Positions 33,449-39,260 of a stretch of 54,484 nucleotides of DNA are shown here, piece after piece (the stretch's first letter is position 1; every line of letters starts with the position of its first letter). The position numbers and the translations under genes were made by a program. The stretch comes from Escherichia coli. GTDB lineage: Bacteria; Pseudomonadota; Gammaproteobacteria; Enterobacterales; Enterobacteriaceae. The notes below the pieces were generated by a model. That model worked only from the letters and a program-made list of their open reading frames with translations. It ran no database searches and was not told the origin of the DNA. Location: assembly GCF_003334355.1 (NCBI RefSeq), contig NZ_QOWP01000027.1; one strand, written 5' to 3'.

Positions 33449-34563
33449 TGCCGGAGAGTGCAATGCAAAACTGGATAAAAACAGTGGTCGTAGCCGTAAG
33501 CCTGGCGCTACCCGGCGTGGTGCTGGCGCAATCGCTGGAGTCACTGGTTAACGTACAGGGCGTGCGTGAAAACCAACTGGTCGGCTACAGCCTGGTGGTC
33601 GGCCTCGACGGTACCGGTGATAAAAACCAGGTCAAATTCACCAACCAGACCATCACCAATATGCTGCGCCAGTTCGGCGTGCAATTGCCGAATAAAATCG
33701 ACCCGAAGGTGAAAAACGTCGCCGCAGTGGCGGTGAGCGCCACGTTGCCGCCGATGTACTCGCGCGGGCAGACCATTGATGTCACCGTCTCGTCGATTGG
33801 CGATGCGAAAAGTATTCGTGGCGGCACCTTGCTGCTGACGCAGTTGCACGGCGCAGATGGCGAGGTTTATGCCCTGGCACAGGGCAGCGTGGTGGTCGGC
33901 GGGATGAACGCCACCGGGGCCAGCGGTTCGAGCGTAACGGTTAATACACCGACCGCCGGGTTAATTCCTAACGGCGCAACGGTGGAGCGCGAGATCCCCA
34001 GTGATTTTCAGATGGGCGACACCATCACCCTCAACCTGAAACGCCCGTCGTTTAAAGACGCCAACAACATTGCAGCGGCGATCAACTCCTCGTTTGGCGG
34101 CATTGCCACCGCGCAGAGCTCCACCAACGTTACCGTGCGCGCGCCCACCAGCCCCGGCGCGCGGGTGGCGTTTATGTCGCAACTGGACGATGTACAGGTG
34201 CAGGCGGAGAAAATCCGCGCCCGCGTGGTGTTTAACTCGCGTACCGGCACGGTGGTGATGGGCTATGGCGTTGCGCTACACGCGGCGGCGGTGTCGCACG
34301 GCAGTTTGACCGTTTCGATTAACGAAACCAGCAACGTCAGCCAGCCGAATGCCTTTGCGGGCGGGCGCACGGCGGTAACGCCGCAGAGCAATATCGCGGT
34401 GAATCATGCCCGTCCGGGCGTGGTGAGTTTGCCGGAGTCGAGCAGCCTGAAAACGCTGGTCAATGCGTTGAACAGTTTAGGCGCGACGCCGGACGACATT
34501 ATGTCGATTTTACAGGCGCTGCATGAGGCGGGCGCGCTGGATGCCGACCTGGAGGTGATCTGA
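33448..34563 (+). CDS. lfgI: Flagellar P-ring protein, FlgI homologue
   Basis: 371 aa with signal peptide (…[16 protein letters not shown]) and FlgI core; ATG 33448 overlaps lfgH stop, alternative ATG at 33463 has a better-placed GGAGAG RBS. Confidence 0.9.
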
Positions 34564-34862
34564 TGAAAATCAACGGCAGCGGCGGGATTGACGGCAGCGA
34601 TGCGTTAATGGGGCCGAAGGTTCAGGCCAATGATATTAAGCAGGCCGCGGAACAGTTTGAGGCGATTTTTTTACGCAACATGCTGAAAGAGATGCGTAAA
34701 ACCAACGAGTTGTTTGATTCGAAAGATAACCCATTTAACAGCGATTCGGTGCGCATGATGCAGGGGTTTTATGACGATGAGTTGTGTAACACCCTGGCGC
34801 AGCAGCACGGGATTGGGATCGCGGCGATGATTGTGAAGCAGTTGTCGCCAAAGCATAAATGA
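34563..34862 (+). CDS. lfgJ: FlgJ-like rod-binding protein (single domain, no muramidase domain)
   Basis: Only 99 aa; corresponds to the N-terminal rod-binding domain of FlgJ (…AAEQFEAIFLRNMLKEMRKT…); stop followed immediately by REP elements. Confidence 0.8.
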   Translation: MKINGSGGIDGSDALMGPKVQANDIKQAAEQFEAIFLRNMLKEMRKTNELFDSKDNPFNSDSVRMMQGFYDDELCNTLAQQHGIGIAAMIVKQLSPKHK

Positions 34863-34877
34863 GGCTCCGACGTTCGG

Positions 34878-34965
34878 TGCCTGATGCGACGCTGGCGCGT
34901 CTTATCAGGCCTACGAGTCGCCCGTATGTAGGCCGGATAAGGCGTCCACGCCGCATCCGGCGTTC
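34878..34965. repeat. REP pair between lfgJ and lfgK
   Basis: gcctgatgcgacgctggcgcgtcttatcaggcctac…gtaggccggataaggcgtccacgccgcatccggcg. Confidence 0.85.
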
Positions 34966-35044: not shown

Positions 35045-36421
35045 ATGGACATGATTAACATCGGCTACAGCGGTGCATCAACCGCGCAGGTGGAGCTGAA
35101 CGTCACGGCGCAAAACACCGCTAACGCCATGACCACGGGCTACACCCGTCAGGTGGCGGAGATCAGCACCATCGGTGCCAGCGGCGGTTCGCCGAACAGC
35201 GCCGGTAACGGCGTACAGGTCGACAGCATTCGCCGCGTCTCCAACCAGTATCAGGTGAATCAGGTGTGGTATGCCGCCAGCGATTACGGCTATTACAGCA
35301 CCCAGCAGGGGTATCTCAGCCAACTGGAAGCAGTACTAAGCGACGATAACAGCAGCCTGAGCGGCGGCTTCGATAACTTCTTCGCCGCCCTTAACGAAGC
35401 GACCACCAGCCCCGATGATTCCGCCCTGCGCGAGCAGGTGATCAGCGAAGCCGGGGCGCTGTCGTTGCGTATTGATAACACGCTCGATTACATCGACTCG
35501 CAAAGCACGGAAATCATCAGCCAGCAGCAGGCGATGGTGTCGCAAATCAATACGCTCACCAGCGGCATTGCCAGCTATAACCAGCAAATCGCGCAGGCCG
35601 AAGCCAACGGGGATAACGCCTCTGCGCTGTATGACGCCCGCGACCAGATGGTGGAAGAACTCAGCGGGATGATGGATGTGCAGGTCAATATCGACGATCA
35701 GGGCAACTACAACGTCACCCTGAAAAACGGTCAGCCACTGGTGAGCGGGCAGCAAAGTTCGACCATCGCGCTGGAAACCAACGCCGACGGCACGCCGACC
35801 ATGTCGCTGACCTTCGCTGGCACCACCTCGACGATGACCACCGACACTGGAGGTTCATTAGGCGCACTGTTTGATTATCAAAACGATGTGCTGACGCCGT
35901 TGACCGACACCATCAACAGCATGGCGTCGCAGTTTGCCGATGCGGTCAACAACCAGCTTGCGCAGGGCTACGATCTCAACGGTAACCCCGGCGAGCCGCT
36001 GTTTATCTATGACGCCAGCAATGCCGATGGCCCGCTGACCGTCAACCCGGATATCACCGCCGATGAGCTGGCGTTCTCCAGTTCGCCGGACGAAAGCGGC
36101 AACAGCGACAACCTGCAGGCGCTGATCAACATCTCCACCGAACCGCTGGAGATCGCCAACCTCGGCAGCGTGACGGTCGGGCAGGCGTGCTCGTCAATCA
36201 TCAGCAATATCGGCATTTACAGTCAGCAAAACCAGACGGAAGTCGATGCCGCGTCCAATGTCTATTCCGCAGCGCAAAACCAGCAGAGCAGCGTCAGCGG
36301 TGTCAGCATGGACGAAGAGGCGGTGAACCTCATCACCTATCAACAAATTTATGAAGCCAATCTGAAAGTCATTTCCGCCGGGGCCGAGATTTTCGATTCG
36401 GTGCTGGAAATGTGCAGCTAA
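35045..36421 (+). CDS. lfgK: Flagellar hook-associated protein 1, FlgK homologue
   Basis: 458 aa; N-terminal (…NTANAMTTGYTRQ…) and C-terminal (…EEAVNLITYQQIYEANLKVISAGAEIFDSVLEM) motifs of FlgK. Confidence 0.9.
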   Translation: MDMINIGYSGASTAQVELNVTAQNTANAMTTGYTRQVAEISTIGASGGSPNSAGNGVQVDSIRRVSNQYQVNQVWYAASDYGYYSTQQGYLSQLEAVLSDDNSSLSGGFDNFFAALNEATTSPDDSALREQVISEAGALSLRIDNTLDYIDSQSTEIISQQQAMVSQINTLTSGIASYNQQIAQAEANGDNASALYDARDQMVEELSGMMDVQVNIDDQGNYNVTLKNGQPLVSGQQSSTIALETNADGTPTMSLTFAGTTSTMTTDTGGSLGALFDYQNDVLTPLTDTINSMASQFADAVNNQLAQGYDLNGNPGEPLFIYDASNADGPLTVNPDITADELAFSSSPDESGNSDNLQALINISTEPLEIANLGSVTVGQACSSIISNIGIYSQQNQTEVDAASNVYSAAQNQQSSVSGVSMDEEAVNLITYQQIYEANLKVISAGAEIFDSVLEMCS

Positions 36422-36435
36422 GCGGGAGCGCGATA

Positions 36436-37365
36436 ATGCGAGTAACCACCCAACAAACCTACGTCTCGATGACGCAAAGTTTTAATAATCTCTCCGGCGA
36501 TCTGGCGCATGTGGTCGAGCAGATGGCAACCGGCAAGCAGATTTTGCAGCCGTCAGATGACCCGATCGCCGCCACGCGAATCACCCAGTTAAACCGCCAG
36601 CAGTCGGCGATTGAGCAGTATCAGAGCAATATCGACTCCGCGTCGGCGGGCTTAAGCCAGCAGGAGTCGATTCTCGATGGCGTCAACAACAGCCTGCTGG
36701 CGGTGCGTGACGACCTGCTGGAAGCGGCGAACGGCACCAATACCGCCGATTCGCTCGCAAGCCTCGGGCAGGATATTGAGTCGCTCACCGAATCGATGGT
36801 CGCGGCGCTCAATTATCAGGACGAAGACGGGCACTACGTGTTTGGCGGCACCATCAACGATCAGCCGCCGATTGTGGCCGTGGACGATGACGGCGATGGC
36901 GTGACCGACAGCTATAGCTACCAGGGCAACAGCGACCACCGCCAGACCACCGTTTCGAACGGCGTGGAAGTGGATACCAACGTGGCGGCGAGCGATTTCT
37001 TCGGTAGCAATTTAGATGTGCTCAACACGCTCAATTCGCTCTCTCAGGAGTTGCAAGACCCGGACGTTGACCCGGCAGATCCGCAGGTGCAGAGCGATAT
37101 TCAGAATGCCGTTGATGTGGTGGACACCGCCTCAGACGACCTCAACGCCTCGATTGCGTCGCTCGGCGAGACGCAGAACACCATGTCGATGCTGAGCGAT
37201 GCGCAGACCGATATCTCTACCTCTAATGATGAGTTGATTGGTTCATTGCAGGATCTCGATTACGGCCCGGCGTCGATCACCTTTACCGGACTGGAAGTGG
37301 CAATGGAAGCTACCCTCAAGACTTACTCGAAAGTGAGTGAGTTGAATTTATTCAGCGTTCTCTAA
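36436..37365 (+). CDS. lfgL: Flagellar hook-associated protein 3, FlgL homologue
   Basis: ATG 36436 (MRVTTQQTYVSMTQ…) with GGGAG RBS; flagellin-like N-terminal helix; directly after lfgK. Confidence 0.85.
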   Translation: MRVTTQQTYVSMTQSFNNLSGDLAHVVEQMATGKQILQPSDDPIAATRITQLNRQQSAIEQYQSNIDSASAGLSQQESILDGVNNSLLAVRDDLLEAANGTNTADSLASLGQDIESLTESMVAALNYQDEDGHYVFGGTINDQPPIVAVDDDGDGVTDSYSYQGNSDHRQTTVSNGVEVDTNVAASDFFGSNLDVLNTLNSLSQELQDPDVDPADPQVQSDIQNAVDVVDTASDDLNASIASLGETQNTMSMLSDAQTDISTSNDELIGSLQDLDYGPASITFTGLEVAMEATLKTYSKVSELNLFSVL

Positions 37366-37381
37366 CTCTTTCAGGAACCGT

Positions 37382-38359
37382 ATGCAGGTCGGACTTACAT
37401 CTTCATCACTCGCCACCGGCGGCGCGCATAGCGCTGCGGTATCGTCGTCAACCGTTGCGCCCACTCAGGCGGTGCGGCAAAAACTCCCGGCGACGGCGAG
37501 TGAATATCCGGCCTCGCCGCTGATTACCACTCGCCCGCAGCGTTACAGCGTGCAGCTTAACGACCAGCTCACCACGTTGCAGCAGGCGGATCATTATCTC
37601 GGGCAACTGGAGCAGCAGTTGCTCGATTATCGTCATAGCCAGCGTAAGGGCGGGCAGGCGCAGAGTACGGCGCTGATGCAGATGCTGGACAAACGCACCG
37701 CGCTTTCCGGCGGCGCGGTGGACCGCCAGTTGCAGCCAGTGTTGCAGGGTGAAGCGCGGGTGACTTTTCACTCGCCGGATATGGCGAATCTGGTACACAA
37801 TCCCACGCCGGGAACGCGGATGTTCAGCGTCTCTGACGGGCGGCAGACTCAGCTTTCGGCGGTGATGCTGTCTGAGGATGACAGCGCCGGGCAGTATCAG
37901 ACGCGGCTGACCAACGCCCTGCGCCGCGTGGGCGTTCAGTTGCATCAGCAAGCGGATGGCATCAGTTTCTCCACCACTGAAAAACAGTGGCCTGATATCG
38001 AGCGCACCTTAAGCGTGCGCACCGATGGCGATAAGTCGGCGTTTATGCCGCTAAAAACCTTTGCCGAACCATCACAGGTGGAGCGCTTAGCGCAAAGCCT
38101 GCAACAGGGCGGGGCGGGGATTTCTCAAATGCTGGAAAGCATTAATCAGCAGCGCGCGCAGATGGCGGTGCAGCAGGAAAAGGCGCGGCAGTTGATCGAC
38201 GGCATGTCGCGCTTCCCGCAAACGGAAAACGCGGTGCAGGCGTCGGAAAACCTCGGCGGCGTGCTCGATAGCGCCAATCATAACTATCAGGTGTTATTGC
38301 AGGCGGTGAACGGTCAGGCGCGAATTTCCAGCCAGACGGTGAGGAATTTATTGGGGTAA
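37382..38359 (+). CDS. lafW: Flag-2-specific protein, possible additional hook-associated/flagellin-like protein
   Basis: 325 aa; C-terminus (…NLGGVLDSANHNYQVLLQAVNGQARISSQTVRNLLG) resembles the conserved C-terminal helix of axial flagellar proteins; function uncertain. Confidence 0.6.
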   Translation: MQVGLTSSSLATGGAHSAAVSSSTVAPTQAVRQKLPATASEYPASPLITTRPQRYSVQLNDQLTTLQQADHYLGQLEQQLLDYRHSQRKGGQAQSTALMQMLDKRTALSGGAVDRQLQPVLQGEARVTFHSPDMANLVHNPTPGTRMFSVSDGRQTQLSAVMLSEDDSAGQYQTRLTNALRRVGVQLHQQADGISFSTTEKQWPDIERTLSVRTDGDKSAFMPLKTFAEPSQVERLAQSLQQGGAGISQMLESINQQRAQMAVQQEKARQLIDGMSRFPQTENAVQASENLGGVLDSANHNYQVLLQAVNGQARISSQTVRNLLG

Positions 38360-38366
38360 TTATCGG

Positions 38367-38403
38367 CAGGCCGGATAAGACGCGTTTAGCGTCGCATCCG
38401 GCA
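38367..38403. repeat. Single REP element after lafW
   Basis: ggcaggccggataagacgcgtttagcgtcgcatccggca. Confidence 0.75.
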
Positions 38404-38417
38404 TATATTGGCACTCA

Positions 38418-39260
38418 TCAGCATTTTTGCACAGTATTTAACAACTTCTCTAAATTCTGATACATCGCGCTATTAATATCGCTGTTCTGCCAGCCTTCCA
38501 CATTAAAAGTTAATTGCCAGCTACCATTGCACTGGTTGCGCAGAACAATATCACTTTCCAGTCGGTTACGAACATATTTATAATAGGTTGTCATTGTCAT
38601 ATTATGCGCTGACAATAAATTATCGAGTTTGTCTTTCCCTGGTGCGAGGGTTTGTGACAGTAACGGTACGGAACTATTTTCTTTTCCAGAACTAAGGTGA
38701 AATATTTTTATTCTTGGACTGTTAATTGACTCTTTTACCAGTTGCGGGGCATCAGGTGTACTTTTCAAGTGTGAATGCCCCACGGTCGAGCCAATAAATA
38801 TAACAACCGCGGTCAAGGCTAACCCCATCAGTCCTTTATGTTTTTTTCTAACAGGCACAGGCGGTGTTGTCGAAGATATCTCTTCTGGCACAATTTCCTG
38901 TATCTGGTTGGTAATAATCAGCGCTTCCGCTGGCGATGACTCCGGCAAAGACACATACTCTTTATTGCACAGGTAACCTTTTTTCGGGATGGTTTTAATA
39001 ATGTTCTGTTGTTTGCCATCATCGTCGATAGCAACGCGCAACGCATGGATTGCCGTCGGCAGGCTGTTACCGCCGACAATGCGGTTCTTCCATACTTCGG
39101 CACATAAATAAGATCGCGATAAAACCACATCGGCATTTTTTGCTAATGTTTCCAGCAAAATAAAATGGTATTCGCCGAGACGACGTGTTTCACCCGTTTC
39201 GCAATGTATTAAGGCATTAAGCGACGGGTCCATCCGCCAGTTGTTGATAATAATACTCAT
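38418..39260 (-). CDS. lafZ: ToxR/CadC-like membrane-anchored winged-helix transcriptional regulator
   Basis: 280 aa; N-terminal OmpR/PhoB-type DNA-binding region, one predicted TM helix (GLMGLALTAVVIFIGSTVG), C-terminal periplasmic domain; noticeably AT-rich; divergent from lafA. Confidence 0.75.
   Translation of the reverse strand: MSIIINNWRMDPSLNALIHCETGETRRLGEYHFILLETLAKNADVVLSRSYLCAEVWKNRIVGGNSLPTAIHALRVAIDDDGKQQNIIKTIPKKGYLCNKEYVSLPESSPAEALIITNQIQEIVPEEISSTTPPVPVRKKHKGLMGLALTAVVIFIGSTVGHSHLKSTPDAPQLVKESINSPRIKIFHLSSGKENSSVPLLSQTLAPGKDKLDNLLSAHNMTMTTYYKYVRNRLESDIVLRNQCNGSWQLTFNVEGWQNSDINSAMYQNLEKLLNTVQKC

Follow-up and report, generated by a model that had tools for sequence, protein, structure and literature searches.

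The proteins with which the product of the lafW gene of Escherichia coli can best be compared are the flagellins (FliC/LafA) and the hook-associated proteins (HAPs) of the hook-filament region, together with a few specialised relatives in other bacteria. The lafW gene belongs to Flag-2, the second or lateral flagellar locus, and is considered here in a stretch of 54,484 nucleotides (nt) of E. coli DNA (contig NZ_QOWP01000027.1, referred to below as the window), where it occupies positions 37382..38359. Lateral (flag-2-type) flagella are widespread in the Enterobacterales, Burkholderia, Pseudomonas and their relatives, and no more than three genes, lafW among them, are said to set flag-2 apart from the classical system; lafW has never been studied. 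In print, LafW is called a "putative hook-associated protein" that has no orthologue in the primary system, flag-1, and it has been used as a marker for flag-2 (PMC6993521). Functional data on LafW are given neither in that report nor in PMC7526173, and no experimental data on the protein or its homologues were found in the literature searched.

Each of the closest described systems resembles LafW in some respects and departs from it in others. FlgL (HAP3), represented in this locus by LfgL, has a conserved N-terminal D0 segment (ND0, MR[VI]S..Q...M...) and a PSDDP motif, both of which are missing from LafW; its sequence homology to LafW is undetected, and LafW evolves about twice as fast. Flagellins, especially those with a small D2 domain such as the A-type FliC of Pseudomonas aeruginosa (PDB 4nx9), are among the systems closest to LafW, but LafW has neither a Flagellin_N nor a Flagellin_C match, its N-terminus is disordered and not conserved, and the part that is variable in flagellin, the central one, is conserved in LafW to the same degree as the helices. 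FliD (HAP2), the cap protein, and the injectisome tip proteins IpaD and SipD give weak match scores to LafW; FliD, the helices of which are conserved at both termini, is encoded in the Flag-2 locus by a gene of its own, lafB.

Two further proteins deserve mention. FljJ of Caulobacter crescentus is a specialised protein of the flagellin type that forms no filament alone, is made early and sits beside the hook, and it demonstrates that flagellin paralogues can serve as secretion-coupled regulators (PMC7591256). It is nevertheless a bona fide flagellin, 49% identical to its structural paralogues, whereas LafW is not recognisable as a flagellin by sequence; FljJ works with FlbT, whereas no gene for FlbT or FlaF was seen beside lafW in the nine independent flagellar loci that we compared. 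In Plesiomonas shigelloides, a protein of 349 amino acids (aa) named "Maf-5" has a LafW-like position (flgL_L to lafA) and size class, and the authors who named it report that it has no Maf domains (PMC4481668). Judged by position and size, it is probably a homologue of LafW under a misleading name; true Maf proteins carry the MAF_flag10 domain, and no LafW member does.

Based on the comparisons described below, we regard it as possible, and propose tentatively, that LafW is a very diverged paralogue in the flagellin/HAP3 superfamily, exported in low copy number and acting as a non-lattice accessory or adaptor protein of the distal hook-filament region. The gene name was known already; what is new is the evidence on the predicted fold, the missing ND0, the wide distribution of the family and the linkage of lafW to flgKL.

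Predicted fold and terminal regions of LafW

An AlphaFold2 (AF2) model of LafW was computed from an alignment of 24 sequences and has a mean pLDDT (the per-residue confidence score of the model) of 70.8. Together with the pattern of sequence conservation it divides the lafW open reading frame (ORF) into the following parts.

37382..38359, + strand: lafW coding sequence, 325 aa plus stop, from the ORF list; identical to the annotated coding sequence of E. coli ATCC 8739; ratio of nonsynonymous to synonymous substitution (dN/dS) 0.066
37382..37531, + strand: residues 1-50, poorly conserved N-terminus, predicted to be disordered (pLDDT 30-37), with no D0-type helix
37532..37714, + strand: residues 51-111, predicted long helix and short helices, the equivalent of ND1 in flagellin and FlgL
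37715..38071, + strand: residues 112-230, predicted compact alpha/beta domain at the site of flagellin D2
38072..38212, + strand: residues 231-277, predicted helices equivalent to flagellin CD1 (AF2 helix at 247-277; in-register, sub-threshold alignment with flagellin CD1)
38213..38356, + strand: residues 278-325, conserved amphipathic CD0-like tail ending in TVRNLLG (low-confidence helices; V320 and L324 nearly invariant)

Confidence in the model is good for the long helix of residues 51-89, the short helices of residues 93-109 and the long helix of residues 247-277, is high in the alpha/beta domain of residues 112-230 or thereabouts (pLDDT about 90), and is low for the helical tail of residues 283-325. 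In Foldseek comparisons the whole-length matches were flagellins, with the outer domain included in the match, and not small co-chaperones. The predicted arrangement is that of the flagellin/HAP3 structural superfamily, in which a D1 bundle is made up of ND1a, ND1b and CD1 and an outer domain lies between ND1 and CD1. It is at the level of this predicted fold, and there only, that the likeness of LafW to flagellin finds support.

Comparisons of sequence families gave a different outcome. Pfam and NCBIfam scans of LafW returned no matching model, and no match to Flagellin_N (PF00669), Flagellin_C (PF00700), Flg_bbr_C or any other domain was obtained at E<=0.1 among 119 diverse LafW members; the sole recurring weak match was to the Flagellin_IN motif, in four members with a best E of 7e-3. 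To the eye, the conserved blocks of LafW look like motifs of flagellin. Profiles for FlgL, flagellin, FlgK and FliD were built from the nine loci and aligned with the LafW family by hhalign, and none of them matched significantly (P=0.04 for FlgL, 0.12 for flagellin, 0.11 for FlgK and 0.046 for FliD); the negative controls FlgE, FlgI, FlgG and FlgH gave P values of 0.078 to 0.36, as against 2e-16 for the positive control, FlgL with flagellin. When LfgL homologues were sought to give the FlgL profile more depth, all the sequences retrieved were at least 85% identical and of no use for that end. Hidden Markov model searches of the PDB sequences were made with four LafW profiles, representing the whole protein (one narrow and one broad), the central domain and the C-terminal part. 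Flagellins were in the top three matches for two of these profiles, but with E values of only 0.17-5, and the sub-threshold alignments kept their register from ND1 through the beta-hairpin and CD1 up to the last residue of flagellin. The best match for the central domain was the anticodon-binding domain of threonyl-tRNA synthetase (E 0.045), a generic beta-alpha-beta unit, and the C-terminal profile matched mostly designed coiled coils.

At the level of profiles, then, membership of LafW in the flagellin/HAP3 sequence family is not demonstrated. Because the comparison with the FlgL and flagellin profiles is not significant, the label "hook-associated protein" has no basis in sequence; it rests on gene position and on a naming of 2005, not on detectable homology.

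Of the two conserved terminal segments by which axial proteins are recognised, a helical (heptad) D0 segment at the N-terminus and an amphipathic helical segment at the C-terminus, LafW has the second and lacks the first. The region of its first 50-70 residues is of variable length and resists alignment between the clades of the nine loci, and proline plus glycine make up 16.5% of the N-terminal region, compared with 5.6-11% in axial proteins. Conservation is lowest in residues 1-50, at 1.0 bit per column versus about 1.9 in the ND1-like helix and the central domain. The D0 of FlgL and of LafA is conserved equally with the remainder of the protein or more so, and all nine loci clearly retain the N-terminal D0 of FlgL, FlgK and flagellin. 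The LafW N-terminus has a helical hydrophobic moment of 0.63-1.37, versus 1.5-1.8 for FlgL and FliC. The moment of the C-terminal tail, at 0.9-1.65, is level with those of FlgL, FliC and FlgK; V320 and L324 are nearly invariant in the 119 sequences, and the tail ends in ...[T/A]V..LL[G/S] where LafA ends in ...MV.SLLQ (in E. coli, ...TVRNLLG versus ...MVSSLLQ). The corresponding tail of flagellin binds a chaperone. The central domain of LafW is under the same degree of conservation as its helices, while the outer domains of flagellins are variable.

To our knowledge, the inner D0 tube receives a helix from each of the two termini of every lattice-forming axial protein. Since LafW without an ND0 could not complete this coiled-coil tube, it is not expected to be a lattice-forming subunit. 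The protein has no hydrophobic segment able to serve as a signal peptide or transmembrane segment, so that LafW, if it leaves the cell, must do so by way of the flagellar type III apparatus. Long disordered N-termini are typical of export substrates, and residues 1-50 are a possible type III export signal. A preliminary description of this gene, made from its sequence alone, had called LafW a flagellin-like axial protein with a flagellin/HAP-like C-terminal helix, and had pointed to a profile search as a means of checking this. The conserved amphipathic tail and its weak in-register alignments are in keeping with such a helix, which is not significant by sequence and draws its support from the predicted fold; the likeness to flagellin can be maintained for that fold but not for the sequence, and with no ND0 LafW is probably not a true axial subunit. 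The profile search itself brought flagellins among the top PDB matches at E values too high to be decisive, and no Pfam or NCBIfam family in the 119 members.

Distribution of the LafW family and its linkage to flgKL

The ORF at 37382..38359 is the lafW gene of the Flag-2 locus, a gene already named and uncharacterised. In DNA sequence it shows 100% identity with ECOLC_RS18050 of E. coli ATCC 8739 (WP_001195946.1, "hypothetical protein"), a gene that lies between flgK-flgL and a convergent lafZ-type regulator gene in a complete second flagellar cluster adjoining dinB. Both orthology and the site directly 3' of lfgL in a flag-2 locus place the window's gene in the LafW family. The preliminary description was correct in placing a gene of 325 aa directly after the junction genes, as lafW begins 16 nt past the lfgL stop, and its statement that the gene has no counterpart in the primary flagellar system agrees with PMC6993521 and with the lack of any Pfam or NCBIfam match.

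Homologues of LafW were found only down to 36% identity in a collection of 5.8 billion proteins; they are ~320-345 aa long, have no Pfam domains and are named "flagellar hook-associated protein" in many instances and "lafW" in some. Run on a set of 1.84 billion cluster representatives, the 24-sequence profile retrieved 243 clusters at E<=1e-3, each defined at 50% identity and mostly of 330-380 aa. Within the Enterobacterales, the family occurs in E. coli, Citrobacter, Yersinia enterocolitica/pestis/pseudotuberculosis, Atlantibacter, Siccibacter, Pseudescherichia, Leminorella, Ewingella, Rosenbergiella and Tatumella, and beyond that order in Pseudomonas alcaligenes, Burkholderia dolosa, B. lata, Trinickia, Rubrivivax and Parazoarcus. 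The family is thus spread more broadly than was described earlier.

The order flgK-flgL-lafW is kept in all nine of the independent loci, with lafW 9-72 nt 3' of flgL at the end of the flgB...K-L series. In Enterobacterales the gene had been assigned to a "lafWZAB..." cluster (PMC6993521). Because lafW stays after flgL even in loci where flagellin, fliD and fliS genes are located elsewhere and unrelated genes follow (L006, L007, L008, L010 and L011), we regard it as evolutionarily part of the flg operon and not of the "lafWZAB..." cluster. LafW is the fastest-evolving product of that operon in the nine loci. Between E. coli and the non-enterobacterial loci its identity is 17-22%, compared with 31-41% for FlgL, 40-44% for FlgK and 54-59% for FlgI, and E. 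coli and Citrobacter share 65-68% identity in LafW as against 86-90% in LfgL.

Among six E. coli alleles that differ by up to ~5% in DNA, the dN/dS of lafW is about double those of lfgL (0.032) and lfgK (0.025), and the ORF is unbroken in all six of these divergent alleles. Since it is intact in the six and its dN/dS is low, lafW is no chance ORF but a gene that has been maintained; it is a real gene under purifying selection that is about twice as relaxed as the selection on its neighbours.

Possible roles of LafW

If LafW is a diverged superfamily member, its gene most likely goes back to an ancestor of the beta- and gammaproteobacterial lateral-type systems, in which flgL or a flagellin gene would have been duplicated and the copy placed at the end of the flgKL operon. 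The protein would be made together with the junction proteins FlgK and FlgL, and the Flag-2 type III apparatus would export it among its late substrates; the disordered N-terminus would serve as the export signal and the C-terminal tail as the interface for a chaperone or for assembly, and LafW might then work at the distal end of the hook, in the junction, the first flagellin layer or the cap. A more doubtful formulation is that LafW represents a distinct class of flagellin-fold proteins, lacking ND0 and conserved throughout the lateral-type systems, whose members would serve either as secretion-coupled checkpoint regulators, mimics of flagellin let out through the completed hook, or as distal parts outside the lattice, such as a junction or cap adaptor, that flag-1 does not need. 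In place of the vague "hook-associated" label, there are now questions about the export of LafW, its location and its chaperone partner that can be put to the test, and the study of this protein could reveal an extra step in junction or filament assembly or a secretion-coupled checkpoint specific to lateral flagella.

The main rival to a distal accessory protein, and one that we consider unlikely, is that LafW is a secreted regulatory mimic of flagellin, which would stay in the cytoplasm, holding a chaperone or regulator through its D1 and C-terminal tail, until the hook-basal body is done and whose export would then release late gene expression or the translation or export of flagellin, by a logic like that of FlgM and FljJ. 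A flagellin-like predicted fold without ND0, which makes polymerisation unlikely, would be suited to such a mimic, as would the conservation of a tail that in flagellin is chaperone-binding. LafW is also the most rapidly changing protein of its operon (PMC6993521), a trait frequent among regulators and partners of chaperones, and there is the precedent of FljJ, which represses translation jointly with FlbT until it is secreted (PMC7591256). This comparison is weakened by the absence of any FlbT- or FlaF-like gene among the neighbours of lafW in the nine loci, a survey of loci and not of whole genomes, and by the ease with which FljJ, but not LafW, is recognised as a flagellin; moreover, the conserved central domain would be needless in a simple chaperone decoy. 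That LafW might instead be a canonical fourth hook-associated axial protein, which is what the database name "flagellar hook-associated protein" implies and which would form a separate ring of about 11 subunits within the junction of hook and filament, appears improbable, because axial lattice proteins give both terminal helices to the D0 tube. The N-terminal 50-70 residues of LafW are unconserved, length-variable and rich in proline and glycine where FlgK, FlgL and flagellin keep their ND0 in the same loci, and the low N-terminal hydrophobic moment and the lack of Flg_bbr_C, Flagellin_N and Flagellin_C matches likewise speak against a ring. Slightly more improbable still is a cytoplasmic co-chaperone or adaptor for late substrates that is not exported, like the FliS-binding protein HP1076 of Helicobacter pylori: the matches behind this interpretation are not significant, the Foldseek matches over the whole length were flagellins complete with outer domain, and the long disordered N-terminus is of a kind typical of export substrates.

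We strongly disfavour, as very improbable, the idea that LafW is a functionless, decaying remnant of a duplicated flagellin gene or flgL. Its rapid evolution, the existence of truncated lafW alleles and the frequent degradation of Flag-2 in E. coli (PMC6993521) might be expected of a remnant, but the low dN/dS, the intact ORF in the divergent E. coli alleles, the same position kept across beta- and gammaproteobacteria in a family of 243 clusters and a central domain that is predicted with high confidence to fold are not. Almost no credence can be given to LafW being some other enzyme or assembly factor, such as a Maf-type flagellin glycosylation factor, FlhF, or the missing peptidoglycan hydrolase that would work with the short LfgJ. 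These readings derive from the label "maf-5" on the 349-aa hypothetical protein between flgL_L and lafA, the Maf domains of which its own authors state to be absent (PMC4481668), from the fact that E. coli LfgJ has a rod-binding domain only, and from a single RefSeq genome in which the lafW product is called FlhF. Searches for MAF_flag10 (DUF115), SLT, glucosaminidase and SRP54-type GTPase domains found them in 0 of the 119 LafW members. Furthermore, LafW, which has no signal peptide, coexists with FlgJ-SLT fusions in loci L008 and L010.

The names given to lafW products by the NCBI annotation pipeline, PGAP, are inconsistent, being mostly "hypothetical protein" and in some cases "flagellar hook-associated protein"; NZ_AP045773.1 has "flagellar biosynthesis protein FlhF", for which domain analysis gives no support. 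"Hook-associated protein" and "FlhF" are annotation names to be corrected, as is, probably, the "Maf-5" of Plesiomonas.

Neighbourhood and variation of lafW in E. coli

The features that adjoin lafW in the window, of which the ribosome-binding site, the stop codon and the palindrome were read from the sequence, are as follows.

35045-36421, + strand: lfgK, upstream gene, probably in the same transcription unit as lafW
36436-37365, + strand: lfgL, upstream gene, probably in the same transcription unit as lafW
37363-37365: lfgL stop codon, with a 16-nt gap to the lafW start
37373..37376, + strand: AGGA ribosome-binding site, 5 nt upstream of the lafW ATG
38368..38404, no strand: palindrome resembling repetitive extragenic palindromic (REP) elements, between the convergent lafW and lafZ; inverted repeat GCCGGATAAGACGCG...CGTCGCATCCGGC
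38418-39260, - strand: lafZ, directly facing lafW in E. coli
40951-42267: lafB (FliD), the cap protein gene of the Flag-2 locus

The position of the ribosome-binding site and the short gap to lfgL are compatible with co-transcription of lafW with lfgKL, and the palindrome may mark the end of this transcription unit. No match to a strict sigma-28 consensus was found within the window, and scans for promoters and terminators around lafW gave results at chance level only. Palindromic elements of the REP type or of the bacterial interspersed mosaic element (BIME) type occupy two spacers, that between lfgJ and lfgK (34870-34965) and that between lafW and lafZ (38368-38404), and the first of these has a 7-bp indel relative to ATCC 8739, which shows the window to derive from another strain. 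The lfgJ gene (34563-34862) encodes a protein of 99 aa consisting of the rod-binding domain alone, without a muramidase/SLT domain, whereas FlgJ is a fusion of rod-binding and SLT domains in the related loci of Pseudomonas alcaligenes (L008) and L010; no peptidoglycan hydrolase for the E. coli Flag-2 system is evident within the window. In distant Enterobacterales, an additional ORF of 158-172 aa with no Pfam domain is found between lafW and the lafZ-type regulator gene (L002 9019-9537 and L004 9035-9511), where it overlaps lafZ at the 3' end of that gene; E. coli lacks this ORF.

The lafW gene is present in 1277 of 5426 complete E. coli genomes, always in single copy, and two of the 1277 matches lie in records classed as plasmid and not as chromosome. 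The first 150 nt of the gene (37382-37531) show unusually little synonymous divergence within the species, with a dS of 0.025 versus 0.14-0.55 elsewhere in the gene, these figures being based on small counts; a constraint on the mRNA or on translation initiation, or a recent recombination tract, could be responsible. Several complete E. coli genomes have LafW variants of ~250 aa that lack the C-terminal quarter, the part resembling CD1 and CD0, and one of these carries the name "lateral flagellar putative hook associated protein". Such variants may be a sign of Flag-2 decay in the lineages concerned, and Flag-2 is known to be frequently degraded in E. coli (PMC6993521). In E. coli strain E41, lfgK has an internal stop (L015 101-1477) and both lfgL and lafW are intact, an instance of piecemeal inactivation of Flag-2.

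One further observation concerns the lafW segment at 38206-38238, the reverse complement of which is identical to a spacer in a type I-E CRISPR array adjoining cas2e/cas1e (L017 1168-1867) in E. coli Res13-Sevr-PER07-33 (NZ_CP062811.1), a strain without Flag-2. The flank of the protospacer is not the canonical AAG protospacer-adjacent motif. The spacer suggests an earlier encounter with Flag-2 DNA as foreign DNA.
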